Shown here: in pieces, positions 5,626-41,757 of the stretch | How the letters are laid out: each line of letters opens with the position of its first letter | How positions within the stretch are numbered: position 1 is the stretch's first letter | Notes under the pieces: model-generated | Database searches by the model: none | Told to the model about the DNA's origin: nothing | Seen by the model: only the letters and a program-made list of their open reading frames with translations | From: Marsupella aquatica | Taxonomy: Eukaryota > Plantae > Marchantiophyta | Assembly: GCA_973895155.1 (NCBI GenBank) | Contig: OZ316893.1 | Span: 15,840,645 to 15,904,644 of the forward strand | DNA: 64,000 nt | Direction: 5' to 3' | Position numbers and translations under genes: made by a program

Positions 5626-7089
5626 AGTGGTGGACCTTGCCACCCAGCGCCCTCACCAATCCCAGCACTCATGCCTAAGTGCCCCTGGTGCCCGAACGCC
5701 TCCATGGAATACCTCGAGCAAGCACCCTAGTACCTCTTGCACCACCAGCGGCCCCATACAAAGCCGCCTTGCTCACCCACATGACCGCTACTCAACGGCC
5801 TCCTTGTCTGCACAAGCAACCAAGCACCTTGGTAAGTAACCCTCCAGGATCTAGAACTTGCCAAGTCTAGCATCCTAACTCAAGCTCAATAGACGTTGGT
5901 AAATAGGTCAGTGATAGGTCCTCCCGATGCCATAAGCCGTAACCAAAACCCACGCCCACTGTCTGTCCAAAACAACTCCTTCCTTGGGCACGGCCCGGGT
6001 TCCCCCTCGTACCTATCCATCACCAACTGACCTCCCTTACCTCAGGACATGCTCATGGCCCAAATAGCGTAGCTTGTACTAAAGCTTGTCCCAAACTTGT
6101 CCCAACACGCCGGGACCAACTCCCGGTTCGCTCCACTGATGGTCTAGGGGCCAGACACTCTTGGGACTCAACCTCCACACCTACTTGGCCTTGCCTCCCC
6201 AGCGCAAGCTCCCTTGGGAGACTGAACGCGACTTGGCTGCCGTTCGGCAGGATTTGGCAAGCGGGCCAGTTAACACCCGCAAACCCCGAGAATCCAAGGT
6301 ACCCCCAGACCCAGCTGAGCTCAGGAGAGCGTAGCCCTTCTTGAGAGCTTTCCAACGCATCCAAGAAGTCTTCCAACGGACTTCCCGTTAGGAAGATATC
6401 GCCATTTCCGTTTGGCGGTTTCCCTTAGTGTCGCGACCGCCACGGCGCACGACTTCGGCTCGCCTTGGCCCCCAAGGAGACACCACTCCCCTCATGTATG
6501 CTTCTGGAGACCTGCCACCCCCGGACCAGCTTTGGTACCTAAACATTTGACCCCCAACCCAGATCCTATTGCGCATAATGGGCACGCCACCAACTGACAA
6601 CGCCCATAACTTTCTCGTTAGGCATCCGCAAGCGGAGTGCCTTAGCCCGTTATGATCGGGCCGACCCAGTGCTCATGCCTAGGCCCTCAGGTCTCATCGC
6701 CGCTCAGGGCCCCCGACCGGCCCAACCCGGATCAGGCCGTAACTTGCGCCCCAAGCGTCCGTTGCCCCTGGTGTCAACTCCATTGGCCTTGGGCCCAAGA
6801 GGAGCTCACACTCAAGCCCTTAGAACTCAAAGTCCCTCCGGAGGTCCGGACGGCCATCCTTGAGTCTGGCCCATTTCCCCTTGACCCGACTAGCTATCAG
6901 CTAGTCCAAGTCCTTAGTGTGTATCCCCAGCTTGGCTCCTTGCCTCGCTAGTGCCACGTCTCATTGCCCACAAGTCTCCCCATGCTAAGTCCTCCCCGGA
7001 TGGCCTATCCGGGCCTGGAACATAAGGGAGCTCGGCGTCGGAGTCAGCAACGCCGGAGCTAAGTGTTAAGGTAGTCAAGTTCCACGACT
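5626..7089 (-). mobile_element. Solo LTR (1464 bp) of the chromovirus family at 12970-46143
   Basis: It is the reverse complement of the LTRs at 12970 and 44651. Termini are AGT...ACT and the 5-bp TSD CCCGT lies at 5621-5625 and 7090-7094. Confidence 0.95.
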
Positions 7090-12969: not shown

Positions 12970-14443
12970 AGTTGCGGAACTCGACTACCTTAACACTTAG
13001 CTCCAGCGTCGCTGACTCCGACGCCGAGTTCCCTTATGGTCCAGGCCCGGATAGGCCATCCGGGGAGGACTTAGCATGGGGAGACTTGTGGGCAATGAGA
13101 CGTGGCACTGGCGAGGCAAGGGGCCAAGCTGGGGACACACACTAAGGACTTGGACTAGCCTATGGCTGGTCGGGTCAAGGGGAAATGGGCCAGGCTCAAG
13201 GATGGTCGTCCGCACCATCGGATGAACTTTGAGTTATGAGGGCTTGGGAGTGAGCTCCTCTTGGGCCCAAGGCCAATGGAGTTGACGCCATTGGCAACGG
13301 ACGCTTGGGGCGCAAGTTGTGGCTCAATCCGGGTTGGGCCGGTCGGGGGCCCCAAGCGGCGATCAGACCTGAGGGCCTAGGCATGAGCACTGGGTTGGCC
13401 CAGTCACAACGGGCTAAGGCACTCCGCTTGCGGATGCCTATCAAGAAAGTTATGGGCGTTGCCAGTTGGTGGCGCGCCCATTATGCGCGATGGGATCCGG
13501 GTTGGGGGCCAAATGTTTAGGGACCAAAGCTGGTCCGGGGGTGGCAGGTCTCCAGAAGCATATATGAGGGGAGTGGTGTCTCCCTGGGGGCTAAGGGCGA
13601 GCCGAAGTCGTGAGCCGCGGCCGTCGCGATACTAAGGGAAACCGCCAAACGGAAATGGTGGTATCTTCCCAACGGGAAGTCCGTTGGAGGACTTCTTGGG
13701 TTCGTTGGAAATCTCTTGAGAAGGGCTACGCCCTCCTGAGCTGAGATGGGTCCGGGGGTGCCATGGGTTTTTGTGGTTTGCGGGTGTTAGCTCGCCCGCT
13801 TGCCAAATCCTGTCGAACAGTAGCCAAGCCGCGTTCAGTCTCCCAAGGGAGCTTTCATTGGGGAGACAAGGCCAAGTAGGTATAGAGGCTGAGTCCCAAG
13901 GGTGCTCGGTCCCTAGACCATCAGTGGGGCGAACCGGGAGCGGTTGCTAGAGTTGGGGCCATTCTGGTCCCGACGTGTTGGGACAAGCTTTAGGACAAGC
14001 TACACTAATTGGGCCATGAGCATGTCCTGAGGTCAGGGCGGTCAGTTGGTGATGGATAGGTACGAGGGAGAACCCGAGCCGCGCCCAAGAAAGGAGTTGT
14101 CCTGGACGGACAGTGGGCGTGGGCTCTGGTTTCGGCTTATGGCATTGGGAGGACCTATCGCTGACCTATTTACCAATTTCTGTTGAGCTTGAGTTAGGAT
14201 GCTAGACTTGGCGAGTTCTAGATCCGAAGGGGTTACATACCGAGGTGCTTGGTTGCTTGTGCAGACAGTGAGGACCGTTGAGTAGCGGTCGTGTAGGTGA
14301 GCAAGTGCGGCTTCATATGGGAGGGGCCGCAGGTGGTGCTAGAGGCACTTGGATGCTTGCTCGAGGTATTCCGTGGAGGCGTTCGGGCACTTAGGCATGA
14401 GTGCTCGGATTGGTGAGGGTGCTGGGTGGCAAGGTCCACCACT
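12970..14443 (+). repeat. 5' LTR (1474 bp), AGT...ACT
   Basis: Direct repeat of 44651-46143 with scattered transitions and small indels. Confidence 0.95.
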
Positions 14444-17260: not shown

Positions 17261-19543
17261 CACTAGAAGAAACCGGCCCATTCTGAGACCCTGCCTTAAG
17301 TGACTCTAATGAGACCTTGCAAAATTTGTGACTCCTAGGTTTTGGGTGTCATTATAGTTACAAGTTGTGGACTGAGTTTTGGAGAATTCTTGGGAAGTCA
17401 TTTCTATAACTATTGGGGAAGTTGCAACTATAACTAAGTTCAGCCAACAAGAATGAAGTTGTATAAGTGACTCCCTCTACAATAGAGCGTTATATATGTA
17501 AGAGAGCCTTAGGGTTTAACACCACAATCTAACCACATTTGACCCCGCCCAACACATACCATTTAGGATATATCCTAATTTTCTTAGTTGTCAATGGGAC
17601 TAAAGGAGATGCCCTCGGGATATTGTGTGAGTACGCAACTCTACAAGGTAAGTAAAGGTCCTTGGTCAATGTCAATGCTAACAGATCTCAAATATATACT
17701 CTACATTAGAGTAGACTGAATTACAACATATGTATGCCACAAGTTTACAAGTGTTACAACATAACAAAATAATCCCAACTAGCTAGGGTCCCACAATGGC
17801 ATGCATGTAATATTAATTGGACTCATTTTTGTGTCTAAATGGGTACATTTGAAGTTATCTCCTTGGTTATCTCTAACTCTCACATATGCAAGGGCAGGTT
17901 ATTTTTACTTATTGCACGCCATGCCATGCATACATACCGTCATGTACCCCCTCCACACATTGTTCCATCTAGATTCCTTTAATTAAAGGTTCAAAATCAC
18001 CAAGAACTGGGAATGCAGCTGGAACCTCCATGTACTTGGCATGTCTACATGTTATAATTAGACATATCTGATAATGGCACCCCACACACTATGCTCATGG
18101 AATGAGCATAAGAACTTGTGACAGTCCTTACCTTAATTAATCAAGCAAGGATCTGACGGTCGTAAACTTAATCAAAGGATGATCTGACGGTTGAAAACAA
18201 ATATGGGCACATTAAACCAGGTTTAGGGTTTAATGGATTCCTTCACGCCAACTCCCATTGCGCCTTGGATTCCTTTGGATTTGCGGACGAGGAGCTGATC
18301 GCGCATTCTTTGCGAGGGAAAAAAGGGGGCAGTTTGTCGATCACTAAGGCTGAAGCTGCATTGACAAATTGCAATCCCGACTGCAATGGGAGTAGTAGGA
18401 GGCAAGAAGAGCGAGTTTAGGGTGTTGCATAGACAAAACAGAATGTGAGTCGTAGGCAACATTCAGCCATTGTATGTGTTTAGCATTGATCATAGGCACT
18501 GTGGGAGGCACTGCAGGAGGCGTTTGCCACTGCGCAAGGCACTGTAGGAGGCACTTGTTCCTTCAAGCTGGGAGAGTCAATTTGACGTTCAGCTGCAACC
18601 TGGGATCGAGAACCAGGAGCTTCTCATTGCGGTTTGGTGTGCATTTGGACTGTTCTTGCAAAGTGGGACTCCAGGCCTGGAGACATTGCATTGATCGCCT
18701 TTGGATGTACATTGGAGTCCGACTAGGAGGCTTTCAAGTGGAGCTGGGTTGGAAGTGAGTTGAAGATTGAGTTGCCATCACATTGCAATAGCGGGGGATT
18801 GTTGCTCAGCTTCACATACTGCTACGGATTACTACGCAGCTTCAGTTTGAGCGGCTTGGTGCTGCATCAGCCCATGTAAGGCTGCAATCCCCTATCTTTG
18901 CTATGTGACCTCGCGGCTGCAAGTTTGGTTGACTTCTTTGTGCTGTGAAGCTGTTTTTGACTCAGGTTCCAGCCAAGTTTCACCAGCGCAAATTTTTCTA
19001 AACATGAGTGTGGGCTACAACTGGTGAGGTGGAAGGGATAAGAAAATGCGCTACCGTCATTGACAACATCTCAACCTTTTACAGTGAGCGCTATTGACAT
19101 TCGGCCGGCTGTAAGTGTATTTCAAGCTTGACTTTAACTTGCCATCTGCATGAACCGGCTTGCAATAGATGTTGTAGCTTTTGCTTAGCTGCATTCACCT
19201 CCCAAGATGCCCCGTGACATCCAGGTTTGCACAATGAGATAATAAGGCTGAAATGATAAGGTAGTGATTGCCAATGGATAAAAAGCTTTATGAGAGTTGC
19301 TTCAACGTTCAGCTGCAAACTAGGATTAGGAACCAGGAACTTGTCGCGGCAGTCCAGCTTGTTTACTTGGAGCCGGAGCTGGAGTCAAGTTTCACATGTT
19401 TCTTGTTTAGTGACAGAGTACTTCTGAGAAATGTGACAGCCCCTGTGAGAGCTTTCGGCACCAGTGAGGTAAAGGGTGTTCTTACTCATGCAATAGTCAC
19501 TTTGACCTTCTGAGTTTCAGCAAATTGAGTTTCAAGTGCGGGC

Positions 19544-19633
19544 ACTGAGAGTTGACCTGTTTGAGCTGGGGTCACTGAGAGTTGAGCTCTTTGAGCTACG
19601 GTTACAGAGAGTTGAGCTGTTTGAGATGCGGTC
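19544..19633. repeat. 30-bp tandem repeat x3
   Basis: Units resemble ACTGAGAGTTGAGCTGTTTGAGCTGCGGTC. Confidence 0.8.
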
Positions 19634-20930
19634 TCATAAGTGAACTAGATCCTCCCCCGTGTAAACGTCTAGCATAGTCACATGTCCAAGCTTTGCTTTT
19701 GACTCTGAATATATTCACTGTCAACCATTGAAGGAGCTACGTGCATGAATTGTCTACTTATTGGGTTGTTTAGGGATTCAATATACAAAAATGACAACTT
19801 GAGTAAGGCAGTCTACGGAGGCGCGAAAGAGTCGCGAGGAGTCGAGTTCAGCTACGGCAGTATTCACTTCAGTTGTCTCAATGTGGTTGGCGTGAGCTGC
19901 AGGTGAGCTTAGCTGTGTGCACATTTCATGTAAGTCAGGTGGTCGGTGTTTTAGGCATTGCGGAACTTGATTGACCACCCCATGGCTAAGGTTTAAGGTG
20001 CGGACTACAACAAATATGTGTTGTTGCTGAAAGTGTTGGTGGTGAGCGACAACTGGTATTGTTTCAGCTAAAGGGAGCACATTGGAGCTTGTGTATCCAT
20101 GACCTGCGACCGATTGCGGTTGCCTGCTGTTACAATTGCCGAATCAATCACGCACCCAATCTTGCGGGCAGACACAACTTTGCGGGAGTGTTGAAGGTTT
20201 AGGGTGAGCAACAGCGGAGAGCTCATTGCTTGGTGGCAGGGTTGAAGGTGGATGATCGGGCTGCAAGGCCAACCGGGGACTTGTTTTGCATTGAGCGATT
20301 GCTGCGGATTGCTACGCAGCTTCAGTTAGGGCGGCTTGGTGCTACATCGGCACAGGTAAGGCTGCAATCCCCTATCGACGCGGACTCACCTCGTGACTGC
20401 AAGTATAGTTGTCTAGGTGATGTATGCATTGCGTGTTTAGGGTCTAGGTGACATCGCTGCTAAGCAAAATTTGTGAGCTGCCTAGGTCCATTGCCGAATG
20501 TTGCTTCCTTTAAATTACCTGGTGCCTGCTGTTACAATCGCCTGCTCAATCATGCACCCAATCGCCTGGAGCTCATTTGCCTGGAGCTTCATCCGTCAGA
20601 TTCAAACTGTTATTGCTGCTCTGCCCTTTTGCCATGGGTTGCCGGCCTACCGGATGCTATCAACAGATTAAGAACAAGTCATATCCTAAGTCCCGGTGTT
20701 GCAGTGATGTCCCCGACCCTAAGATGCTTTCCAAACTCATCTTTCTTGTTTCCTGTTGCTGCTGATGTATGTATGTTCTCCCCTATTTTTGCTTACAGAT
20801 TGGTCTCTCCACACTTCTTGCTTGACATGATTGTTTTGCTCCTCCCTGTATCAGAACATGCCTTGTGCCCGGCGGTGGGGTGGGGGGGTGAACAGACGAC
20901 CTTAAGGTTCACTACATTTCTAGGAACTGT

Positions 20931-21090
20931 GCATCTTTCAGCTGATTTTAGCCGCAAGTTCCCTTGCTTTCCCCTGTTTTTGCTAAGATCCCTCCCACTA
21001 ATCACATGCATCTTTCAGCTGATTTTAGCCGCAAGTTCCCTTGCTTTCCCCTGCTTTTGCTAAGATCCCTCCCCACTAATGACATGCATC
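20931..21090. repeat. 77-bp tandem duplication
   Basis: GCATCTTTCAGCTGATTTTAGCCGCAAGTTCCCTTGC... starts at 20931 and 21008. Confidence 0.85.
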
Positions 21091-22280: not shown

Positions 22281-22623
22281 TCAAACAATTGTGTTGGGCT
22301 TGGTGGCCTTGTAAGTCTTCTTTAGCTTTCGCAATGGAGGTTGAATCTTGCAGTACGTCAAGGGGAACTTGATCTTTGAATCATGGAACTGCTTGGTACT
22401 TTCTCGCTTGCACAGAGAGACAGGGACTGTCGTAGTCTTCATGATCTGGATGCAAGGGAACCGAACTCTATGACAAGAAGCCATCTCATCATACATCTGC
22501 TCTGCAGCTCCGTTTCTTGTGGTATCACAATATTCCTTGTACATGTTGTGATAACCTGTACGACTCTGATACGTGGACCCAGATACCGAAGTTCTTAATT
22601 GTGGTGGGCTTCTTTTTGAAGAT
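22281..22623 (-). pseudogene. RPL18A: Captured last-exon fragment of 60S ribosomal protein L18a (eL20)
   Basis: It reads [17 protein letters not shown], then after a +1 frameshift [43 protein letters not shown]...[17 protein letters not shown]...KTYKATKPN. It begins right after a CAG acceptor. Confidence 0.93.
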
Positions 22624-23631
22624 CTGGTAGACACATTATTCAGCATTTGCTAACTTCGAAACTAGAAGGGTAACACATTAAACAACAGAGAAACTCACAA
22701 CATCCTCCTTTGGTCCTTCAGAGTCTGTACTTTGATTCTGAAGTTTGACTGAGTTTTTGTTTACTAAAAGAATGTGACTGTGTAAGAGTTCCGTTTGGCA
22801 GTGGATTGGTTGAAGCACTTCATGCTAGTGTGTTGTCCACAGCTCTTCAACCAGCTTTCGTCTTCCTTGTCTTTCACCACTTACGATGACATCAATTCAG
22901 CTAAGACCATAGAAGGTTCCAAAGCATCTAACTTGTAAAATCGCATTCTGTTACATCAAGGACTAAGGTGTTGGGTGCCAAAGGAGACAGCACAACAAAC
23001 ACGCTGAAAAGACTTCAGGACTGGGTTCAACAAGGTAGTGAAGGTGCTTAGAGCCATAGTAAGTATGCATTCTGTATCTTTCTCTATTGATGTGAGCTTG
23101 TGCATAATGGGAGTTGTAGTTGGCAAGAGTTCCAAATATGAATAGATCCAGAAGTATGTGATCATGTACTTGCTCTATAAAGTTCTGAAGATATAAGCAT
23201 TTTCTGTTAGACCAGGCAACTTGGGAGTTGGTAAGTGTCACCTGCATCTGAGGGGCTACACCGGGGCATCAGTGGAGGTTCACTTGCACAACACGACAAC
23301 CAGTGAATTTTCTCTCTGCTGCAACCTGCAAGGTGAGACTTTCGGTCTTTCTGGATGAAAAAACAGGAGTTTAATATGATTGATATACATGTCCGTCGAG
23401 AATATGGGTTTATCACCAAGCTCTTTGTCTTAGGAAACTCATAAACTCAGAATCAAATATGTACTATGCACGTTTCATGCTATGTGTATACTATGACCTG
23501 TAGTTGGAACCAAGACAATGAGTGGGAACTGATTAGTTTAGGTGGTTGCTGTTGGCGAGGCAAGTCGACCTCCTACTCACCTTGCTCATCAAAGGACGTG
23601 AACAGAGGACATCACAACGAAAGCAACACTT

Positions 23632-24081
23632 ATGGTGAGGACCCGCAACGCTGAACATGTGCGACTTGCACGCAAGGCAGAGATGTTGCGCCTTGAGTAT
23701 GTCAGACTTGGGATCCTTCCAGCCCAGTCTGCATGGTACTTTGAGTACCCTGTTGTTTCTAGGAACAACTACAGTCGGCCTCTACCTGCTTCCGTACCCT
23801 TCCCGACATCCTTGGTATTTGTGTCTCTTGTACATGACCCGCCACAAATTAGGTGCCAAGGGTGTGTACACAGTTGCCAATATGACTGTCCTGCCTGTAG
23901 GGCTTCTGGCCCAGAATTGGATGACCGTTCTCTTGGATGCCGATTTTTGCACAGAGCACAATGTATCATCTGGAACCACTCGCCATCCTGCAGTGTGCTT
24001 GGTGATGTCACTTGTCCTGCCCTCCCAGACCCCACCACCGGTGACTTTGGTGTCTACACATGTTTGGATCACATGCTCTAG
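23632..24081 (+). CDS. Cys/His-rich putative zinc-binding protein, 149 aa (CACTA cargo)
   Basis: Intact ATG-to-stop ORF containing CQGC..CQYDCPAC..CRFLHRAQC..HSPSC..C..YTCLDH, on the same strand as the downstream cargo genes. Confidence 0.5.
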   Translation: MVRTRNAEHVRLARKAEMLRLEYVRLGILPAQSAWYFEYPVVSRNNYSRPLPASVPFPTSLVFVSLVHDPPQIRCQGCVHSCQYDCPACRASGPELDDRSLGCRFLHRAQCIIWNHSPSCSVLGDVTCPALPDPTTGDFGVYTCLDHML

Positions 24082-24696: not shown

Positions 24697-24840
24697 AAAT
24701 GCCTTTGTACCTTAAATGCTAAATATATTTTACTTTCTGTGCAGTCTGCTAAATTGTAGAGTCTATCTAAATGCCTTTGTACCTTAAATGCTAAATATAT
24801 ATTACTTTCTGTGTAGTCTGCTAAATTGTAGAGTCTATCT
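24697..24840. repeat. 72-bp tandem duplication just upstream of the PHD ORF
   Basis: AAATGCCTTTGTACCTTAAATGCT... starts at 24697 and 24769; the copies are near-identical. Confidence 0.9.
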
Positions 24841-24851
24841 CATGCGCAGGC

Positions 24852-25532
24852 ATGGCACGGCCTAAAATTCAAGCCAAAAAGCGTGTGACAGAGGTGAGAA
24901 ACACAGGTGTACTTGGGGCAGATGCTACTAACTTCTCTGCAAGTCAGATTTTCCAGAAGGCAGCTCATTGTTGTGCCATTTGTGACGATGGTGGGGGCCT
25001 GGTCATTTGTGAGGGCCCTTGCATGAGGCATTTCCACCTCAACCCGGAGTCTGACCTTGCTGCAGAAAACAACTGTCCAGGGGTGGGCCTCCCGTCAACA
25101 CACCAGGGAGACTGGATGTGCACTGATTGTTTGGAGAAGCAGGCTAAGTGTGCACAGTGTGGGAAGTTGGGGTCCTATGAGGGCTCTGTTGATGCTGCAG
25201 CAAATGTTAGGAAATGTCCAGACCGTTTTTGTGTGAGATTTTTCTGTTTTGAGTGTTTGCCTGCTCATGCCACAGCTTGCCCACTTCATAGGTGCAAGGC
25301 ATGTGGTGAGCATGATGATGACTACTGGACTGACATAGTCCACTGTGCTAGGTGTCCCACTATGTGGCACTATCATTGCCTGAAAGATCATCAAGCAGAG
25401 GGTTATGCTTGTGACAGAGAAATCTATGATCACTCTGCACATGGTGTTGATCGATGGATATTTTATTGTCATCGCCATGCCATTGATCCTACCTCGCGCA
25501 CTCCTGTGAGAGATCACATATCTTGGTTGTGA
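24852..25532 (+). CDS. Stand-alone EDM2/NSD-type composite PHD-finger protein, 226 aa (CACTA cargo)
   Basis: CAICDDGGGLVICEGPCMRHFH..WMCTDC..CAQCGKLGS..C..FC.RFF..CPLHRCKACG..CARCPTMWHYHCL..WIFYCHRHAIDPTSRTPVRDH follows the EDM2 PHD region motif by motif, as I recall it. Confidence 0.85.
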   Translation: MARPKIQAKKRVTEVRNTGVLGADATNFSASQIFQKAAHCCAICDDGGGLVICEGPCMRHFHLNPESDLAAENNCPGVGLPSTHQGDWMCTDCLEKQAKCAQCGKLGSYEGSVDAAANVRKCPDRFCVRFFCFECLPAHATACPLHRCKACGEHDDDYWTDIVHCARCPTMWHYHCLKDHQAEGYACDREIYDHSAHGVDRWIFYCHRHAIDPTSRTPVRDHISWL

Positions 25533-26118: not shown

Positions 26119-26997
26119 GTGTACATGGAGCCTGGTAAACGTAGAAAGTGTGACCACCCAGCAGTGTTTACAGGGGTCAGAGCGATTTTGGTCCATGGCC
26201 AGCATGGGTTGACCAAAGTGCATTGGCCAACTGTACAGAAACGATTCTCTGAGCTCCATGGCACTGTAGTTCAGGACATCACTCCAGAGACTACACATGT
26301 TGTTGCAGGGACATGGCTATCAGTGATAAAGAAGTGGTCATGGTCCTACATGAATTCTGCAATTACTAAGCAAGGCCTAAAAGTAGTTGAGGCCTCTTGG
26401 ATCACAGATTCCATAGCACATAAGATTGTACAGGATACTGAGCAATATGAGTTGTGGGAGGATGAAGAAGCTAATGCATCAGCTTGGGCTGAACAAGAAG
26501 TCTGGGAAGCAAAGGCACGGCTTGCTGATCTCCAATATGGACCTGTACTCAACAAAGGACAGAGCTCTACAAGGCTGAAGAGTATGTTGGCTGAGGAGAC
26601 GAAGCAACCAACCCCCATTCTGAAAGGGCTGAGCATGGTATTTGTGGAGGCGGGAATTGGAGAGGTTAAGTGCAAAGTGTACAAGTCCACAGTGCTTGAC
26701 CTAGGTGGGACAGTGGAGGAGAATATAACAGAGGACACCACTCATGTCATTACTAAGTCATATCCCAAAGCCTGCCGCAAGTTTGGGAAGGGACACATTC
26801 GCTTTTATGTCATGTCCCATAATGTGTTTGTGGTTTCATATGCTTGGCTTGTGGAATCAGTAGCAGCTGGGAAGCGTCAAAACCCAATGGACTATGATCT
26901 TTTTGAGGCCTGGCCACGGAAGGGTCAGGATCCTTACAGAGAGGACTATGAGACAACAAGTGAGGAATGGGTCATTAGCGATTCTGAATCAGAGTGA
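26119..26997 (+). CDS. Tandem BRCT-domain protein, about 290 aa, with DNA polymerase lambda-like BRCTs (CACTA cargo)
   Basis: Two repeats: VFTGVRAILV..GTVVQDITPETTHVV..VVEASWITDSI..YEL and ILKGLSMVFVEAGI..LGGTVEENITEDTTHVI..VVSYAWLVESVAAGKRQNPMDYDL. The ORF is intact. Confidence 0.85.
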   Translation: MYMEPGKRRKCDHPAVFTGVRAILVHGQHGLTKVHWPTVQKRFSELHGTVVQDITPETTHVVAGTWLSVIKKWSWSYMNSAITKQGLKVVEASWITDSIAHKIVQDTEQYELWEDEEANASAWAEQEVWEAKARLADLQYGPVLNKGQSSTRLKSMLAEETKQPTPILKGLSMVFVEAGIGEVKCKVYKSTVLDLGGTVEENITEDTTHVITKSYPKACRKFGKGHIRFYVMSHNVFVVSYAWLVESVAAGKRQNPMDYDLFEAWPRKGQDPYREDYETTSEEWVISDSESE

Positions 26998-27430: not shown

Positions 27431-30400
27431 ATGCACCCTGGTCACCACCCTCCCCAGACCCAGCCCAGGGCACAGGCACTGCCTTTGCATCATCCCACAA
27501 GGATATCACGCCATGATAATAAGCTTTGGCAGCGTGAAAGGTTACGAACCAGACTTTCAGGAGCCAGTAGGATGAGATGTCCTTGTGCAATCTGCCAAGG
27601 ATCCCGTGCCAGGGGTCTGAATGAGGTTTGGCGGCATATCGCGGTTCATGGAAGAGATCCACGACATCGAGTTTGGAATGATCCTGCAGAGGAAGATTCT
27701 TCCGACGAGGAGTGGAGGTTAGAATTTGATGCTGCCAATGCTGCAAGACGGGCAAGTGAGGTTCTGCCTGGTGCATTTGAAAATGTTGTAGCTGGTCTCT
27801 GTGGGTTGTCAGCTCTCCAACGGGATGGTGCTCAGGCAGCACCACGTGACGAAGGAATTCATGTGGAAGAGATGGTGAGAGACATCTTCCAAGACTTGGA
27901 TGCATTTCATGATGGGCTGGACAATGAAGAGGATACGGCTGCAGATGCAAGTGTGCCCCCTGTCGAAGAGCCTCTTGATGAGTTTGAGATAGGGCAGGAA
28001 ACCCCTGGGCATGATGGGATGTTTGGCTCTCCCCTGCAAATACAGGAAGGCAGGAAGTCTTTGTACCCCGGTAGCAAATGTTCTAAACTGGGATTTGTCA
28101 TCATGTTCCTGAACATTTGCGGCAACCACAATGTCCCCAACGTTTTGGTTTCTGAGTTGTTGGCATTCTTGCGAACAATTGTGCTACCAGATGGTAATAT
28201 TTTGCCCAAGAACATGTACGAGGCAAAAAGATGCATATCTAATCTTGGATTGAACTATGATTCGATCCATGCCTGTCCTGATGGGCATGTTCTTTTCAGA
28301 AAGGAGTATAAAGAATCGTTGACATGCCCTAAGTGTGGGAAGCACAGGTATCGGAACTCAGGAAAGTCTATGGTTCCCGCCAAGGTACTTCGTCATTTTC
28401 CACTCATTCCCAGACTTCAGCGGATGTTCAGAAGCCGTGCCATCTCGGAGATGATGACTTGGGCAACTGACAAGAAAAGTGATGATGGGCTACAACGACA
28501 TGCTGCAGATTCAAGGCAATGGAAACTCATAGATGAGATGTATCCCGAATTTGCTGCTGAGCCGAGGAATGTCAGACTTGGGCTGTCATTGGATGGGGTA
28601 AACCCATTTGGAGACAAGAACAACAAATTTTCATGCTGGCCTGTAACTATTTTGAATTATAACCTTCCTCCTTGGATGACTACAAAGCAATTTTTTGTTC
28701 AGATGGTCCTACTGATACCAGGGCCAGACAGTGCTGTATCTGCCAACATAGATGTGTTTCTGGCTCCCCTAGTGGAGGAATTGAGAAAGCTTTGGGAGGA
28801 AGGAGTTCTCACATATGATGTCCTACAGAGGCTTGGGAGGTTAAACCCATTCATCCTTAGAGCCATTGTCATTCTGACTATAGCTGACTACCCAGCCCAT
28901 GGGATGATATCAGGCCAAACAACAAAAGGATATTGTGCTTGTACTATCTGTGGGCGCAATGTCACCAGTGAGTACTCCAGAGCCCTGCAGAAAGTGATAT
29001 ACATGGGCCATCGTCGTTTTCTGAAGACAGATCACCCTTACAGAGAAAGACAGGCACTGATTGCACACTTTGGCAATGAGATTGAGCAACGTGGACCCCC
29101 GGCACGAGTGACCAAAGAGGAGATCAGGCAGTGGGGAGCACTGAGGGATGACTATATCAAACGAGGGGGCAGGGAAGATGGAGTGAGTGATCCAATAAAG
29201 CGATATGGTGTAAAAAGACTGAGCATATTGGACTTGGAGCTCAAGTACTGGAGGGTAAGCCTCTTGGAGTTGATGCTAATTGGGATACATGTTTTGGTTC
29301 AGAGCATGTGCATTCATTTCGAAGAGAGACTAAACTTGAGGCATTTCCTGACGCTTTTGCATTGCAACGATGCAGGAGTTTGAGCCAAGCAAACATAACA
29401 TTGATGTTATGCACATTGAAAAGAATATTTGTGAGAGTCTACTCAGATTCTTGTGTGGAGAGAAAGACACTGGTTCAGTGAGATTGGATCTTGAACAGAG
29501 GGGAATGAAACCCCATCTTTGGTTGAGGCCACATGCCCACAGAGCTGATGTGCTCTTGAAGTACCAAGCGCCCTATGTTCTGACAGACACAGAGTGGGAA
29601 CTATTTGTGCAGAGGTTGAGTTCTTTGAAGGTTCCTTCAAACTATGGCAGTGCTTTCAAGAAGCATATCATGACTAGAAAGCTTGGTAGTATGAAAAGCC
29701 ATGACTACCATATGTTGATGCAACAGGTGTTGCCTTTATGCCTGAGGGGCCTGTTGCAGAAGCCTGTTCGTACTGTGATCATGCGACTCAGTGATGTGTT
29801 TCGTCGTATTTGTGTGAAGGTTTGGGATGAAACACACTTCCCACAACTGACAGAAGATGTCGCTCAGGTGCTGTGTGACCTGGAGATTTATTTTCCTCCC
29901 GCATTTTTTGATGTCATGACCCACCTACTTGTCCATGTTGTGGAAGAGCTACACCAATTTGGGCCTGTGAGTGCTCGTTGGTTGTACCCTTTGGAACGGT
30001 ACATGAAGCTACTCAAAGGTCACGTGAGAACATATTACAAACCTGAAGCAAGCATGGCTAAAGGTTACATCAAGGATGAGACTCTGGGATTTCTGACCGA
30101 ATACATAGCACAATATGAGCATGTGAAGACCAGGGTGTGGAATTCTGATGAGGAGGAAGGGGTGGTAGGTGAAGTACTGGAAGGGGCTGCAACCACAAAG
30201 AACCTGACCATATCTATGAGAGACTTGGCACATGACTTTGTATTGCACAACACTGTGGTGATGGAACCCTGGATACAGTGAGTGCATACATGTGCTATAA
30301 TCCAGTTCATGAGCTTAAATGTTGTGTTCGTGTGGTTTTCTCCTTCAGCCTGTTCATGTTTACCCAAGCTAATGCTGTGTGGTTGTTCGTTCAGGGAGTA

Positions 30401-31160
30401 TGAGTCATTGAAGGCGGCCCATCCCATTGCAGGAACAACTTTTCCAGGTTTCATGGAGTGGATCAGAGTGGCAATTAGAGAGCATCACGAGACCCACCCA
30501 GACATGGATGCAGATGTTTACCTACTGTCTAATGCCCCTAGCCTGAAAGTGAAGACTTACAAACGGATGAGAGCATATGGGAATCACTTCCGAGTGAAGG
30601 ATGGTGACAGTGCCTACAGGGTGACGAATGACTGCGGGCTCATCACTGTATTTGAGCAACAGAGCCACAATCACGACAGGGCCTGGATGGAGATGGGATA
30701 TGTGGGAGAATTAGTTGACATATGGGCTCTGGACTATGGGGCGGTGTCCAGTCCTGTGATTCTTATGAAAGGTTCATGGGTGCGGCAGGATTGGCTTGGT
30801 AACAGGGCTACCATGAAGAGAGACAACGACGGTTTCTTGCTGGCCAATTTCAGAGGGAAATTGCCCGAATGGTCTGAGCCATTTGTGTTTCCTAGTCAGG
30901 TGGAGCAAGCTTTCTTCCTGGATGTGGAAGACTCCCCAGGTTGGCGTGTAGTGTGTCATAAACAGGCCAGGCAACGCCGGATGGAAGGATCAAACCTTGA
31001 GTTTCATTTACACTCTCATAGTGCCTTTGATCATCGGCGTTCAGACCAAGTGCCTGTAGTTCATGATAGCGGGGACTTCATTCCTGTGACAAGGGTAGAT
31101 GCATTTGCTGAAGGAGGCGAATTCAGAGATGCAGATGCCAACAGTGTGCCTGTGCCATGA
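27431..31160 (+). CDS. CACTA TnpD/Tnp2 transposase (Transposase_21, DUF4218, DUF4216); 3 exons, about 1163 aa, apparently intact
   Basis: Exons 27431-29254, 29376-30277 and 30395-31160 join in frame across GT-AG introns. Motifs: RNVRLGLSLDGVNPF, ADYPA, HNIDVMHIEKN, MKSHDYH, FPPAFFDVMTHL, RWLYPLERY and EPFVFPSQVEQAFF. Confidence 0.93.
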
Positions 31161-31317: not shown

Positions 31318-34300
31318 TGGAACAGAGTGACACAGAGATGTGTGAGTATGAAAGGAAAGCTATGGAACAACGAGCATACGTGAAAGCCAAAATCGCAGAA
31401 CTGGATCTGGAAAAGGATGTGGCTGAATTGTAAGGGAACGATTCTCAACTACACCCCTCCGCTGAGTTTGTGTGACATGAATAGTTCAATGTGGCACTGA
31501 AATTGTGACTGTATTCTCATATTGGAATGTCGCAGAGCCACAGCATTTTCAAAGAAACAAAAGGAGTACGCAAGAAGGGTGACCAGCACTATCTCTGGGC
31601 CTGTGCGTCGGAGTGACAGGTTGAGCAAGAAGGTCGTACCTACAATGGCAGAATGTGGAGATGACATTGATGCTGCACAGGTGGGTGCAGACACTAGACA
31701 AGAAGATGCAGATGATGAGTATTTTCCAGAGGAAATGGATGAGGATGGGGGTTATGAAGATGAATACATTGCAGAGCAGCCCCAAAAGAAACATGTAAGT
31801 AGTTTTCCCAACAAGGTTTTGAGTTAAAAACTCTTGTTTATGTTGTGATAGACAACTAAAGGAACACTCAAAGATACTCCAACAAGATAGATCCATTACT
31901 ATTGATGAGGGGATATATATATCCCCTTGGTTACATGGTAGGCAAATGCCCTTATACTGGTCCTATGGTTAGGAGTTCTCATACTATGGTTAAGGGTTCT
32001 CGCCCTATGGTTAAGGGGTAAACTAGGGTTTACAACACTCCCCCTTGGTTAGTTTATGGAGGAGCATAAAGTAACCACATCTCTTGAACCTAGGGTATAA
32101 TCCGGTTTAGGGGTCCACCTGTGTGATGTAGCCTCATTAAAACCTCGCCGCTTTCTTCTCGAGGAAAGAGTGCTACCATCACTTATATAGGTGGTTTCCC
32201 ATATCTAATGTCCTGGTTAAGCCTTTTTGCCATGTCTTAGTTAGTGTTAATCGTATGTGCTAAGTGGGGTTATGTGAATGTTCCTAATGGGTGTCTAGTC
32301 TCCCCCTCAGCTCGTTGCCTGGTGTGCGCCTCGTGTTGTTCTTCATGTCGTTTTGCGTATTGCGCTTCGCTTCGTGTTGTGCTTTGGGTTAGTGAGGCCA
32401 AGTCGGGCGTTTTTGCGTTGGTTTGCGTTGTTTCACGTCGGGGATGTGGTGTGGCGCTCGCCGAGTGTGGTGGTCGGGCATCTGGAGGCGGCTTCATCGG
32501 GCGACAGCTTCGTCGTTGGGTAATCCTTTCGAGCTTCAGTGTTATGAGGTGGGCTTGATCGTGGACAATCTGCTCATGCCTATGCCTTCGAGGTGCGCTC
32601 TGTGCAATCCGGCTGGTAGTGGTTTCGTAAACATGTCTGCTCGATTGTCCTGAGATTTGATCCATGCAACATTGATACTTTTCCCTTGTTGTTCTTGCGT
32701 GAAGAAATACTTGGGGTCAATATGCTTGGTCCTCTCGGTCTTCAGGATTCCGTTGGTTATCTGGTCGATACACGCCTTATTGTCTTCGTAGATTGTGGTT
32801 GGCTCTGTTATCTGTGGTTTACCGGTGCTGGACCTAATATGATTGATAATGCTTCGTAGCCATACAGCTTCTCTGCACGCCTCGTATAACGCTATGATTT
32901 CCGAGTGGTTGGATGACGTTGTGGTCATTGTTTGCTTTGAACTTCGCCAAGATATTGCTGTCGTCCCCTGTAAGAACACGTACCCAGTCTGTGATTTGGA
33001 GTCCTGGGGGTCCGACAGGTAGCCGGCATCAGTGTAACCGGTAAGCGTATCGGGGCTATTCTTAGGAAAGAATAGTCCAAGGTCGATCGTCCCTTGTAGG
33101 TATCTCATGATCCTCTTGATGCCGTTCCAATGCCTGATGGTGGGCTGTGCGCTGTGTCTCGCTAAGAGACTGACGGCGAACGATATGTCAGGTCTCGTCT
33201 GGTTCGCTAGATACATAAGGGCGCCCACCGCTGATAGGTACGGTTTTTCTGATCCCAGTATGGATTCGTCTTCTTGGCGCTTCCGAAACATATCTTTGAT
33301 CGGGTCTAGAGATCTGAGTTCCATCGGGGTGGAGACAGGGTAGGATTTCTGCATGTTGAATTGATGAAGTATCTTCTGCGTGTATGTCGATTGGTAAAGG
33401 AATATGCCTGTTTCTAAGTGTTCGATCTGCAGGCCTAGGCAGTGGTTGGGTCTTCCAAGGTCCTTCATCTCGAAGACTCCTTTCAGTGTATGTATTGTGT
33501 CTTTCATCATCTGTTTAGTCCCGAATAAGTTCACATCGTCCACGTACAGTGCTAGTATCAGGACTTCGTCCATATGCTTTTTGATGAAGATGCAGGGGGC
33601 CAGTCCGCTATTTGTAAATCCGAGGGCGAGCATCTCTGTCTGGAATTTCTGATACCAGATTCTGCCGCTCTGTTTAAGTCCGTTGATGGAACGTAACACT
33701 TGGACTGTAAGTTTTGTTGTTAATTTCTTTCCTCTGGTATGCATTGCCTGTGTATTTCCACTTTGCATCAAGAGGGCCTTTGTATCCCCATCAGGTATTA
33801 TTTGGCTGATGCCCTTTTTAATCTCTGTATTCAGGTTCTGGGACGTCTCCCCCTGAATGTGCTGCTTGACCCTCTCTATCAGTTCCGGGGGGGCAGTCAT
33901 GTATATCTCAGTATCGAGTGTGCCGTAAAGGTACGCGGTTACCACGTCCATAAGGTTATTAACCAGTTTATGGTGGACTGAATGTGCTGTGAGATAGCGA
34001 TATGTAGTAGCGTCCATTACTGGTGAGTATGTTAAATCGTAGTCCCTGCCCGGGATTTGTGTGTAGCCTTTGGCTACTAGCCGGGCTCGATATCTTACTA
34101 CTATGCCTTTCTCATTTCGTTTTTTCAAGAATGTAAATCGAGAGTCGGTGTAATGTGTACCTGGTAATGCCATTTTAAATGGTCCGAATACTTGTCGCTT
34201 GATGAGGGCGTCCATCTCGGTATGTATTGCTGCTTGCCACTTTGGCCAATCTGGTTGTTTCTTTGCCTCGTTTATAGTGAGCGGATCAGGAATATCGTTG

Positions 34301-37300
34301 GTGATTTCCTGTATTACGTTATAGGCAAATTGTTCATCAATTTGGGTTGTCGGTCGTTTATATATGTTACCTGTTTGCATGTATGTGATTGACATTTCCT
34401 CGTTTTCTTCGCTCAGTGGGTCGTTTTGATTTATCGCTGTCACGTTAAGTGTGATCGCTGGTTCCAGCGCGGGTGTACCCAAGTTTGCTGCTGGAGTTTT
34501 ACGTTGGCGAGGCTGGGAGTCCTTGATCCCTGGTGGTCTGCCTCGCTTTGCTCTGGGGGCTGTTACATTGGCCGGTGTCGAGGAGGTTTGTACTCGCGAT
34601 GGCGCATTAGCTGCTAAGTTGTGGGATCTTGTGACATTTGCAGCGTCGTTAAATGAGTCTGGAATCTTTTCGAGCATTTCATGTAGGTGGAGAAGTCTTC
34701 TGACTTCTTCGTCTGCCTGCTTGGTTCTGGGGTCATTTCTGTTTTGGTCTGCTTTCCAATTTATGGGCATTTTCGTTGTGTCCTTGGATTGTGTTGATGC
34801 TGTATTCGTGAGCTGTGGGAATTGATCTTCATAAAAATGGCAGTCCTGATGTCTTGCCTTGAACAGGTCTGCCGTTGTCGGTTCAAGGTATCTAATGATC
34901 GAAGTAGAGTCAAACCCAACATAGATACCTGCATTCCGTTGGGGTCCGAGTTTTGTTCTCTTTGGTCCTAAGATAGGCACCATTACCTGGCATCCGAAAA
35001 TGCGTAGGTGGGACAGGTCCGGTGGTATGCCGAACGCCAGGTGGTATGGTGTCTTAGAGTTATATGCTGACGGTCTATATTGGATTAGTGCAGCTGCGTG
35101 AAGGATGGCATGTCCCCATGCTGATGTGGGTAAGTTTGACTTCATTAACAGTGGTCTTGCCACCATTTGAAGTCTCTTAATAACCGACTCAGCTATACCG
35201 TTCTGAAAATGAACGTGGGGAACTGGATATTGAGTATCGATGCCCGCTGCCCAGCAAAAGTCGTCGAATGTTCTTGATGTGAACTCGCCAGCTCCATCTA
35301 CTCTTAATCTTCTTGTAGGATACTCTGGGAACTGTGCTCTTAATTTAAGAATATGTGCTAAGATCCGCGCAAATGCCAAGTTGCGGGTAGATAGCAATGA
35401 AATCTGCAGCCATTTAGTTGATGAGTCGATGATTACCAGGAAATATTTGAAAGGGCCGCTCGGGGGGTCTATAGGTCCGCAGATATCTGCATTGATCTGC
35501 TCTAGGAACTGTGGTATTGAAAATATTGTTTTTGGTATTGATGGTCGTATGGTCATTTTTCCTTGTGAGCACGCTATGCAGGCTGTTTTTACCTTTGGCT
35601 TGACTGTCTTGGGGATTCCTTTGGAGTCCCTTATAATCCTGTTGTACATAGTGGTACCCGGGTGGCCCAGTCGACAGTGCCAGATGTATGTCATATCCTC
35701 TGATTCTTGGTGTATATGGAATGTTTGGATACTGGTTGCGTATAGGCCTGGGGGGATCAATGCAAATGTTTCTTTAATGGATGGCTTACCCTGTATGTCT
35801 TGTATGATCTGTAATGTCTCTGTTTTGCCCTGAGTATTCGTGCGCAGTTGGAGGTTATTGGATCTGATATCCTGGAAGCTGATGAGGTTTCGGGTTGCTT
35901 TCGGGGCATAAATTGCTGACTTCACGGTGATTTTAGTTCCTCCTGGTAGTATAAATGTGGCTCGTCCTTTGCCTTCTTCTATATGATTAAGTCCTGCTAT
36001 GGTGGTGATAGCGCGGGATGATGGGGTGATGGCCTCGAAATACTTGCTGTGTTTTAAGATAGTATGTGAGGTTCCGCTGTCGATGATGCCCGTATCGGGG
36101 TCGTCTAATGTCGGGTATTTCCAGTCAGTAAGAGAGGTATGTACTTCTATCTGTTCTTGTGTTTCTTCTCTCTGAGAGGCAATCAATTCTTCTTCTATCT
36201 CCATATAATGTCCTTGGGGGTTTTGTCTGGACTTATTTCTGTCGTTTATGTATCTGTGGGCCTCTTGTTCTGTGGCTGCACATGCGTTTCTAATGTGGCC
36301 AATTTTGCCACATCGGTAACACATTTTCTGGGAATTGTTTGCAGTGTCGTATTGGTTGCTTCGTCCTCTTCCTCTATTATTCATGGTGCCTTTGCGCCAC
36401 GTGTTATTGGATCCGGAGGGTCGGTTATAAGGTTTGCCTTGTCCTCTGAATTGATTTCTCCCGCCCCTGAATTGGTTTCTTCCGCCTCTGAATTGAGTTC
36501 GTCCGCCCCGGTAATTTCCTCGTTGTTTGTCTTCATAATTGGTGTAGTGGGTTTCAGGTCGATGTGGTGGGGGGTCTGATCCTGCTGGGCGCTTTCTGGC
36601 GTTTTGCAAGGCCACGATCTGTTGCTTCTCTTCCACAAGTAAGTGAGCAATCAGATCTGAGTACTTAGTGAAACGCATGTTCCTATATTGTGTACCTAAT
36701 GTGATATTAGATTCAGGGAATGTCGATAGTGTCTTATCGATTCTATCTATGTCATTTATTGGATGTCCACACATTTCTAATTGAGATGTAATTCTGCACA
36801 GTGCGCTATTGTAATTGGCAATTGTGGTGTGGTCCATGACGCGCAGGTTATGCCAATCCCTTCTTGCCTCTGGGAGCCATATCTCCCTCATATGATCAAA
36901 TCGGGCTTTGAGGAGATCCCATAGTTTTCTTGGATTAATTTCGTTCATATACTCATTCTTTAGTTGAGGGGTTAGATGTTGCCTGAGTAGAAACGCTGCC
37001 TTAGCCTTTTGTTTGAGCGTGACATCGATGTCGGTATCTAAGGTGTCTTCAAGGTCTTGTGATGTAAAGTAAGTTTCGACATCTGTGATCCACGTCAAAT
37101 AGTTGGATCCGTCGACTTTAAGTGCTGGCCATAATAATTTTTCGACTGTATTCATTATTCGGGATGTCAGTTGATTTAAGAACTTTGGTGAAGATTGAAT
37201 CGAGTGAAGTATCTCGATTGTACAATTGACCGGTTGGAAGCTTGTATATGGAGCTGAGGGAGCTTTCAATCATGCCAATAAAGTATTAGTCCTTTGGACT

Positions 37301-40300
37301 CTCGATATGCTGGTCCCGAATTGATGCTCTATGTGAAATTTCGTGTTTTGTAAAAAAAATTCAACTCTGAGGCAAAAGAATGGAGACCAAGAAAAAAAAC
37401 GGTTATGGCAGTTTCTAAAAAAAAATGCCACTTTACGAGCATTCTCCTCGTGTAAAACTCGATTGCATCTGCTTGAAAAAAAATGATTTTAGAGACTGGC
37501 TCGTGCTGATAACGTGTTGTGATAGACAACTAAAGGAACACTCAAAGATACTCCAACAAGATAGATCCATTACTATTGATGAGGGGATATATATATCCCC
37601 TTGGTTACATGGTAGGCAAATGCCCTTATACTGGTCCTATGGTTAGGAGTTCTCATACTATGGTTAAGGGTTCTCGCCCTATGGTTAAGGGGTAAACTAG
37701 GGTTTACAACAGTTTAGAGGTTTCATATGTTCAGTACTACACATATGTACCTTGCTTAGTTCCTGACATTGTAGTTGGTGATGTGATGCAGCGTCCTGCC
37801 AGTTCTGTTTTGCCTTCGAAGCCTGTGCATGCACCATACCAGCAGGGGGGGCTGACCTCTGATCAAGGTTGGCGAGGTGGTAGTAGTGGTAGATCCCAGG
37901 CTGGTGCCCAATACTATGGCAGGGGGCAAGCTCTAGGTTATGCCCGTGGTAGAGGCAGAGCAGGTCCAAACCCACAATCTCGTGGGTATGGACGTCCACC
38001 TCAACCGTGGGGATGTGAGTATATATCTATATGCCAGTTCTTTGTGAAGGCATGGCACTCCTGAATTTCAGACTGCATATCAATTTTTGACATTGTTTGG
38101 GATGTATTGGATTCAGACAACATGAAATTCTGTCCACCTGCCATTGCATGCAGATTCTGCCCAACCTGATTGGGCAAATGCTAGTAATGATCAGTTCCAA
38201 TGTCCACAAGGACAGACATGGGTTGAACCAGGTTGGGAGGATGGTGGTGGGTCGTGGAATGAACAAGGTTGGGAAGGTGGTGAAGGTAATTGGCAGGGAT
38301 ATCAAAATTCAGTACCTACAAACGCTGGAAGAGGAGCAGGTAATGTCTGATCTTGTCAGCAATGGAAGAACTCATTATATGTGGAGTCCATTCACGTGGG
38401 GGGGACTCTGCACATGTATAATGATAGAAAATGTATGTGTGCAGGTTGGACAGTCGAACCATCAACTCAAGTATTCACTAATGCCCCTATGCAGATGCAG
38501 CACGGAAGGGGGACAGGTATGTCGGTGAATGTTCAGTTGTTTTCCTACAGTTTGTACTTAGTTTTCAGTACATATGTTTGCACACACATACCTAGAAAGT
38601 GACATCATCCGGCCCCTGTACTAGGCTGGACAGGTGGTCCAGGGTCGCAACAATTTCAGAGTGCAGTCCCTGCACAGGCATCTACAGGCAGAGCTACAGG
38701 TATGTATGTTTGAAGAATTTTTCTTGAAGTGAAGCATTGAATGTTGCCGTCATCCATTCTGCTATATGTAGTTCTCAAGCATGAATGGCATTGTATTTTC
38801 CCAGGTGGCTTCAGAACCCCAGGTAGGGTGAATGAAGGGGTGGCCAATACAACGCCCAGTACTACCGAGAGCAGTGCACGAGGGGAGGTGACAAAGAAAG
38901 GGAACGTAAAGTTGAATGAGAGACAATGGGTGGATGCTGAGTGTCCTCGCAAGAACTGATGGCATGCTGATTTGAAAGTTGAAGTATTGCGTTGGTTAGA
39001 TGTGAGTGTTATTAATTTTAAAAAACAGCATCCAAAAGATTGGAAGACTGTATGTGAAAATGTTGCTGCCAAATGGAATTATGTGGGCAGTGATGATGGC
39101 GTGGACATAGGTTGCCTAGAGAGTACAGCAGGTAAAATTATCAAGCAAGAGAGGTGGAGAATGCATAAGGCTTGGAAGGAAGGTGGGGAGAAGCCAGATA
39201 TGCCTCCACCAGCCAGTTGTGATGATAAAGTGTGGGCAAGGTTAGTAGCTTATTTTGTAACAGATGCTTCAAAAAAGAAGAGTTCACAGATGACCGAGGC
39301 CAGGTTGAGTGTTCAGAACCCTAATCTGACAGGAAGGACCGGCACTGCACCGACAGCTAAACGTTTGGTAAGAATGAATGGCCTAGCTATGTAATTTATG
39401 CTACACTATGTACTATTTTTTAGTGTAAACCCATACATGTAAACTTTGTTTTTTAGTGTACGTTCCCTGAATATTGATCGATAACTTGTGTTTGCCATGC
39501 ATGTGCAGAAAGCCCAATTGGGGCAAAGCCCTTCAAAAGAAGAGTTGAGGGCTGAAATTGTGAACACCCGGGCTCAAGAGGGTGCATCTGAATCCTCCAA
39601 GCATGTAAGTTATATGAGTTCTGATTGGTAATTGAATGACCTGCGTTGAATTTCAGGTGTACACTGTATATAACATTGATTGTGCATATATTGCCCAACA
39701 TTTCATATGGAGTGATTGAACCTATACCCCTGTGTCATGTAGGGAGGTGGATCTTCACTTACAGAGATAAGTGGTCGTTTGAAGGCTGTCGAAACATGTC
39801 TTCCAGAGATCAATGAACGTTTGAATTCATTGACTGACTTGTTCCATGTGAACTTCAAGACATTAATGGAAGCTGTTGTGTCGGTGAGAGATAAAATTGA
39901 TTCCAATTCTGCAGGAGTTCCACCATCACCACTTGAGGTGGCAAAGTCGATGCACTCTTCTGGCATGCCAACGACATGTAGGCTTGAAGGTAAGGCCTTT
40001 ACAACTGTGTGGGATATGATTATTAAATGTATAGTTTGAATTGACATTGTTTGTTGAATGTGTTATTTTCAGTAACATATATTGTGGTTGTTGTGTCCAT
40101 AGAGAATAAGACAGGTGCTACAGAGAAGAAGTATGAGAACCTGGCAAATACTCGCTGTAATTTAGAGGCAACAAAGTTGCAGTCTGTACAAGCAACTTGT
40201 TTGACAGAGGGCAGTCAACCATGTTTGGATGAGGATGACATTGGCAAGGGAGTGGATGATATCAATGTTGGGGCAAATGAGGATATCAGCAAGCATGACA

Positions 40301-41720: not shown

Positions 41721-41757
41721 TTGCGGTCTCAGTTCACCTCAGATTCTTCTAGTGTAA

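Follow-up and report, generated by a model that had tools for sequence, protein, structure and literature searches.

An intronless open reading frame within a CACTA (En/Spm) transposon of Marsupella aquatica (24852-25532, + strand; the PHD ORF) encodes an EDM2-type triple PHD protein of 226 aa and is very probably a functional accessory gene of that transposon. The ORF is under purifying selection, and its sequence identifies the product as a remodelled accessory protein rather than a copy of EDM2. All coordinates given here refer to the window, the whole 64,000-nt stretch of DNA that was analyzed. The CACTA element lies on the plus strand at 17261-41754 and measures 24.5 kb including a 5.9-kb Copia insertion; its terminal inverted repeats (17261-17273 and 41742-41754) match at 12 of 13 bases and a TAA target duplication stands on both sides, so that the PHD protein is indeed transposon-encoded, as had been proposed from a reading of the letters. 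That sequence-only reading had also described an insertion into a decayed Gypsy, and this was borne out, as the CACTA element splits the RT gene of a plus-strand Gypsy (12970-46143) whose LTRs (12970-14443 and 44651-46143) are 95.7% identical (1410 of 1473 aligned bases). A third copy of the Gypsy LTR, inverted and about 87-92% identical, was found at 5626-7089. The CACTA element is itself interrupted by a young minus-strand Copia (31841-37711; identical 197-bp LTRs, a GTTTA duplication and an intact 1537-aa ORF), which apparently sits within an intron of the TnpA-like gene and completes a three-level nesting of Copia in CACTA in Gypsy. Palindromic TAGCGCCAGGCGCTA-type repeats are dispersed outside the CACTA element at about 1.4, 7.8, 9.8, 11.2, 12.4-12.8, 52.8, 54.7, and 55.5 kb, and are possibly the termini of another DNA transposon family. 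An ORF near these repeats (53276-54535) has a SWIM-like Cys/His end by eye and no Pfam match, and broken LINE-type reverse transcriptase ORFs were read from the translation at 60423-62323 (+).

The genes on the plus strand of the CACTA element follow the order Cys-rich ORF, PHD ORF, BRCT ORF, TnpD, and TnpA-like gene. The Cys-rich ORF (23632-24081, +) encodes a 149-aa Cys/His-rich protein with no match in Pfam or Atlas; two homologues were found at 55-57% identity, and all three copies start with MVRTR, which recalls the H3-like VRTK of PAF15. Its region also holds the peak contig depth of the covered stretch in two of the public sequencing runs considered below (X1 and X3). The third accessory ORF (26125-26997, +), intronless and just upstream of TnpD, encodes a tandem BRCT protein of 290 aa that could bring repair factors to excision or insertion sites. 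The TnpD transposase (27431-31160, +; predicted exons 27431-29254, 29376-30277, and 30395-31160) yields a spliced model of 1164 aa with no premature stop and with Transposase_21 and DUF4218 above the Pfam cut-off. The multi-exon TnpA-like gene (31318-40899, +), of which the start and exon bounds are approximate, has a weak Transposase_24 match and an in-frame TGA at 38957-38959 in one of its exons; this copy of the CACTA element may therefore be non-autonomous, though its TnpD is open. The element has also captured an intronless fragment of the ribosomal protein L18a gene (RPL18a; 22281-22646, -). An AG stands shortly upstream of the start codons of the PHD, BRCT, and TnpD ORFs alike, which suggests that the three are spliced to a common leader; alternative splicing or tandem genes have been described for En/Spm elements (PMC13547354). 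Two diverged repeat pairs (18820-18934/20300-20414 and 18572-18625/19292-19345), accompanied by donor-like GTAAG sites, may represent a duplication of the element's 5′ leader exon.

A candidate splice acceptor, CAG (24847-24849, +), ends 2 nt before the ATG of the PHD ORF, so that an upstream exon could in principle join the ORF; a stop 10 codons upstream closes its frame. Use of this acceptor would eliminate an out-of-frame upstream ATG at 24842. Upstream of it we recovered the 72-bp tandem duplication reported previously (24697-24840, +), with 70 of 72 positions identical and 11 nt between its end and the ATG. The duplicated unit is pyrimidine-rich and ends in AG, and the duplication is probably the 3′ end of an intron. 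Its very recent origin and its position outside the PHD ORF mark it as probably incidental to the PHD gene, and on the same grounds we rejected it as a capture scar or regulatory element. Tandem repeats of 77 bp and 30 bp (20930-21090 and 19529-19633) also occur in the 5′ region of the CACTA element, where local duplications of this kind are thus common.

The PHD ORF translation starts with MARPKIQAKKR and ends with TPVRDHISWL-stop. Full zinc ligand sets are present in three fingers on the plus strand, namely finger 1 (residues 41-93; 24972-25130), finger 2 (residues 100-146; 25149-25289), and finger 3 (residues 148-209), the last of which, together with the TPVRDH end motif (residues 217-222), covers 25293-25517. 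Pfam recognizes PHD-1st_NSD, PHD_NSD, and PHDvar_NSD in this order, each below the gathering cut-off, and no family beyond these three NSD-type PHDs, with no SET and no PWWP. The module occupies nearly the whole ORF, and the methyltransferase-like (ELP), acidic, PGR, proline-rich, and RFD regions are absent. The protein is thus stand-alone, as had been claimed, and its three full fingers, long His-to-Cys insert, and end motif agree with the earlier description of an EDM2-type composite PHD complete through TPVRDH. EDM2 is described as combining 2.5 atypical PHD repeats with acidic, PGR, methyltransferase-like, and proline-rich parts, and as having ASI1 and AIPP1 as partners (PMC7529245, PMC9910501, PMC9292364). 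The PHD protein shares with it the 2.5-repeat atypical module, the long His-to-Cys insert, and a TPxRDHI end motif, but it lacks the RFD (which we found in the proteins P0016, P0027, and P0029) and the methyltransferase-like, acidic, and proline-rich parts, and it is encoded by an intronless gene within a transposon. Its predicted fold, from a 100-row alignment, has a mean pLDDT of 85.8 with residues 1-25 unstructured (a model from a 6-sequence alignment, with a pLDDT of 45, was discarded). PHD proteins were its best structural matches, and the top VIA-align match was the PHD-C5HCH tandem of NSD2, with a middling Z of 5.3 and an rmsd of 2.6 over 75 aligned residues. The family profile likewise matched NSD2 and NSD3 chains (E 3e-12 to 4e-9). 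NSD1/2/3 therefore resemble the PHD protein in their homologous triple finger (E 3e-12 to NSD2) and in fold; however, the SET and PWWP domains are missing from the PHD protein, whereas the EDM2-type insert and end motif are missing from the NSD fingers.

Comparison with host-type proteins indicates where the module was rebuilt. Module length is 174-182 aa in the seven complete members of the PHD family (the PHD ORF and its relatives, described below), compared to a median of 205 aa in 86 measurable host-type proteins, consistent with the shortened loops noted before. The His-to-Cys insert of finger 1 has 12 residues, compared to 2 in four non-plant outgroup rows. The six positions that precede the first Cys include an acidic residue in 118 of 119 host-type modules and in none of 16 family members (119 of 131 host-type modules and 16 of 18 family rows could be scored), and the family instead has Q-K-A/S-A/P-H before this Cys. 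In AIRE, Asp297 binds H3K4, Asp312 binds R2, and Leu308 and Trp335 form the A1 pocket (PMC2685098). His39 of the PHD ORF aligns with AIRE Asp297, and H is found at this position in 11 of 13 family rows. In contrast to this loss of the K4 aspartate of H3K4me0 readers such as AIRE and BHC80, the R2 acid (E54) and the A1-pocket residues (L50 and W88) are kept in finger 1 of the PHD ORF, and the family has D/E at 54 in 13 of 13 rows, L50 in 13 of 13, and W/F88 in 15 of 15. By analogy, EDM2 would employ its K4, R2, and A1 positions as AIRE does. With the acid lost, the proposal that the PHD protein reads marks the way EDM2 does is, as worded, unsupported. In finger 2, a zinc ligand that is His in 117 of 119 host rows is Cys in 15 of 15 family rows. 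A loop of roughly 20 aa has also been deleted there. The 30 aa before finger 1 carry a median charge of -11 in 103 host rows, compared to -3 to +7 in ten family rows.

The best-scoring named host-type proteins are mostly from liverworts (Calypogeia, Marchantia, and Riccia), and the PHD ORF is 27-36% identical to plant EDM2 and EDM2-like proteins. In an IQ-TREE analysis of 44 of the 146 rows, picked to span the clades, ten family rows formed one clade (100/100) on a stem of 1.52 changes per site, and the best tree nested this clade among streptophyte EDM2s (95/95). FastTree placed the family outside land-plant EDM2s. Two other placements survived the AU tests, one as sister to a liverwort paralogue whose PHD module is C-terminal (p 0.53) and one outside green plants (p 0.44). 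The EDM2-type origin of the family rests on two sequence characters, the long His-to-Cys insert and the end motif.

The PHD ORF does not stand alone as a single captured gene. A word search yielded five relatives of it among 123 candidates (217-245 aa, 37-82% identity), which align from the M-A-R start through DHISW and have start and stop in common. In a profile search of 1.84 billion proteins, 564 matches were obtained at E<0.001, with the short family members ranked first. A 12-row family alignment has 29 invariant columns, 16 of them Cys or His. Six of the 21 database family proteins are complete, the rest being partial, frameshifted, or cut short, and such a mix of complete and broken members is typical of transposon copies. 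In a search of longer proteins, which was a weak one, none of 340 candidates scored as a longer form of the family. A metagenome scan gave one short related locus (L001) from 147 pattern matches, and none was found among 90 pattern matches in viral contigs or 19 in prokaryote genomes. This locus (529-1200, +) encodes an intronless relative of 41% identity that starts basic, contains a single premature stop, and ends in DHISWL-stop; Cys-rich, BRCT, or TnpD sequence was not recognizable in its 1.9 kb. No relative was seen beside a transposase, and the transposon context of the PHD gene is that observed for the Marsupella copy in the window. Of 11 family proteins whose records were consulted, none came from an annotated genome, and repeat masking may therefore hide the family.

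Contigs from four public runs, coded as four organisms, span the PHD ORF wholly or partly. At a 10% share, no indels were listed in the 706-bp ORF stretch in any of the four runs, compared to 130 over 14.6 kb, from which 6.3 would be expected in the ORF stretch if they were even. Synonymous changes made up 18 of 40 differences, compared to 21% expected (p 0.0005, omega about 0.3), a count that rests on 40 selected, unphased differences out of 90. None of these 40 altered a zinc ligand, and an apparent stop at codon 134, composed of three changes on one contig, was counted as non-synonymous. The copies thus combine a synonymous excess with invariant ligands and no listed indels, which is not the pattern of neutral decay that had been named as the outcome opposing a function. 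In run X1, a diverged variant has similar depth in the PHD ORF (1713-1978) and in TnpD (1912-1949), which hints at a second subfamily carrying both, with no bridging contig, with depth not equivalent to copy number, and with X1 as a possible source sample.

The N-terminus of the PHD protein, in which the sequence-only reading had seen a short basic NLS-like stretch, resembles that of histone H3. After the Met it reads A-R-P-K-I-Q-A-K-K (residues 2-10; 24855-24881, +) and is identical to H3 residues 1-9, taken as printed in PMC2685098, at five of nine positions in register (A1, R2, K4, A7, and K9). In a register test for which the start Met was chosen blind and the first 20 residues of each row were shuffled, 8 of 20 family rows matched at p<0.01 and the PHD ORF had a p of 0.002, the rows being homologues and not independent draws. 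A ninth row has ARTK behind a second Met. A score of at least 12 was reached by the PHD ORF alone among 53 ORFs of the window, and by 14 of 179 background proteins. The remaining 12 of the 20 rows had no in-register match with the blind Met; six of these have a similar motif behind an N-terminal extension, where it would not be a free end. Residues 2-10 have 5-7 of 9 positions in common with P0004, P0005, and P0009, compared to 0-1 of 17 in the linker. Of 134 host-type proteins, 14 likewise begin with M-A/S-R, among them EDM2 types from liverwort, Selaginella, Mesotaenium, and Chlorella and three PHD-only proteins that fall with grass sequences, and the start of the family may therefore be inherited. 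An M-A-R-T/V/A start, unlike that of seed-plant EDM2, was seen in nine non-seed-plant and algal proteins (P0012, P0014, P0015, P0017, P0018, P0024, P0079, P0089, and P0118). The M-A-R start of such EDM2 types may be an ancestral feature that serves as a ligand of the protein's own first PHD finger. By the same comparison, the H3-like start of the PHD protein may be ancestral and perhaps a self-ligand of finger 1, or may be just a basic NLS or DNA-binding arm. There is a precedent for such a start in PAF15, which the UHRF1 PHD is reported to bind the way it binds H3 (PMC7060239). PAF15 likewise has an H3-like tetrapeptide directly after the Met; however, PAF15 acts in host replication, contains no PHD, and has proven binding, whereas for the PHD ORF the likeness to H3 is one of sequence.

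Taking these features together, we tentatively favor a reading in which the PHD protein is not an EDM2 copy but an H3-tail competitor that would dampen host silencing of the CACTA element. A leader spliced onto the acceptor before the ATG would allow expression, and removal of the Met would give the protein a free Ala-Arg N-terminus. Finger 1 would still hold an Ala1-Arg2 end, either that of H3 or its own, while being blind to K4, and the tail, through its K4- and K9-like lysines, would engage H3 readers or writers of the host and so keep these occupied near the element. Countering of silencing has been described for VANC and TnpA (PMC10398659, PMC13317346). A broader version, which we regard as doubtful, is that a CACTA lineage of land plants, probably of non-seed plants, carries a three-gene chromatin toolkit, composed of a zinc protein with a PAF15-like VRT, an EDM2-derived PHD protein whose tail mimics H3, and a protein with tandem BRCT domains, and that histone mimicry, as seen in PAF15 and other host factors, neutralizes heterochromatin readers or methyltransferases of the host.

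The retained A1 and R2 pocket residues would also suit a role in insertion targeting, where the module reads a nucleosome feature and tethers TnpA and TnpD there. RAG2's PHD guides RAG1 in a comparable way. The PHD gene precedes TnpD and has as its neighbor a BRCT gene, which could function in repair of the cut. PHD fingers of Chlamydomonas transposons have been proposed to lessen harmful insertions (PMC9940879). The position of this copy in a Gypsy also fits, and heterochromatin targeting had been suggested from it; however, a single insertion is uninformative on targeting where the window is so dense in repeats. As the PHD protein has almost no surface outside the module, and as targeting would leave the H3-like tail unexplained, we consider this role unlikely.

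A low probability also attaches to a non-histone scaffold, in which the partner of the module is the Cys-rich ORF product, the BRCT protein, or a zinc finger of the host, and in which the tail serves just as an NLS or DNA-binding arm. Such a scaffold would agree with the loss of the acidic patch before finger 1 and with the NSD2 PHD-C5HCH tandem as the best VIA-align match, since the NSD1 equivalent is reported to bind Nizp1 and to bind H3 only very weakly (PMC4838375). However, the Z of that match is middling, and a scaffold would not account for the conserved R2 and A1 pocket residues or for the position-specific A1/R2/K4/A7/K9 pattern.

We find it improbable that the PHD protein is a dominant-negative form or a helper of EDM2, binding the same H3K9me2-containing marks and altering polyadenylation through heterochromatic introns. 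EDM2 PHDs are described as binding H3K9me2, and the AAE complex as promoting full-length transcripts (PMC9910501, PMC7529245, PMC9292364). The EDM2-type signatures are clear, and the tandem ORF layout of the CACTA element would need read-through. Against this, the acid of nearly all host modules is lost from every scorable family row, finger 2 is rebuilt, and the stem branch is long, and blocking EDM2 would tend to hurt the full-length transcripts of an intron-rich element. Since the protein contains no other EDM2 domain, the suggestion that it aids the element's own expression via the ASI1-AIPP1-EDM2 complex is unsupported. Finally, passive cargo, either a captured host fragment (Pack-CACTA) or an exon of a longer gene without function, would fit the RPL18a capture, the acceptor just before the ATG, the many broken relatives, and the decay described as the usual fate of captured genes (PMC13317346), but we disfavor it as very improbable given start and stop codons common down to 37% identity, invariant ligands, the synonymous excess and lack of listed indels, the 41% relative that is likewise intronless, starts basic, and ends identically, and, more weakly, the lack of a scoring longer form among the 340 longer candidates.

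Several parts of this system have precedents. PHD-only EDM2-like host genes exist in grasses, so that this architecture alone is not unique. One of them, rice Os03g0266600 (344 aa), likewise consists of the module with little else, but these are annotated host genes on separate tree branches and have a C-terminal extension. The PHD-only EDM2-like proteins in our set (P0031, P0039, P0056, and P0052; the named ones from Eleusine and rice) lie on branches apart from the family, and three of them start with MARxK. PHD fingers are also found in RAG2-like and Academ transposons. PHD fingers in transposons are already known, an example being Gypsy-7a and CR1 of Chlamydomonas, in which, as described, the PHD is an accessory domain within a retroelement protein (PMC9940879); the PHD ORF differs in that its EDM2-type triple module forms a protein of its own, encoded within a CACTA element. 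It is likewise known that CACTA elements capture genes and that VANDALs have retained captured Ulp1 (PMC13317346). VANC and KIU of VANDAL MULEs and TnpA of Spm are, like the PHD protein, products of extra element-encoded genes, and KIU keeps a captured host Ulp1 under selection; unlike it, they are described as acting via DNA-motif binding and demethylation, and those descriptions include no PHD protein. The titles and abstracts of the full-text literature searched, most subscription journals and repeat-database entries aside, report no CACTA element with an EDM2-type PHD gene, and the word PHD occurs 0 times in the main text of a 2026 Arabidopsis TE-product atlas (PMC13547354) and of a 2026 gene-capture review (PMC13317346).

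The PHD protein is small and predicted to fold well. Its family constitutes a natural mutant series for EDM2 that reveals where the module tolerates rebuilding, and points to the Ala-Arg N-terminus in EDM2s of non-seed plants. The plant anti-silencing proteins VANC, TnpA, and MURA are described as acting on the DNA of the element. If the reading favored here is true, the element would follow a different anti-silencing route, aimed at host readers by means of a histone module that is derived from the host and carries an H3-like tail. If the toolkit reading is true, a transposon would have made its anti-silencing strategy out of a part stolen from the machinery that silences it.
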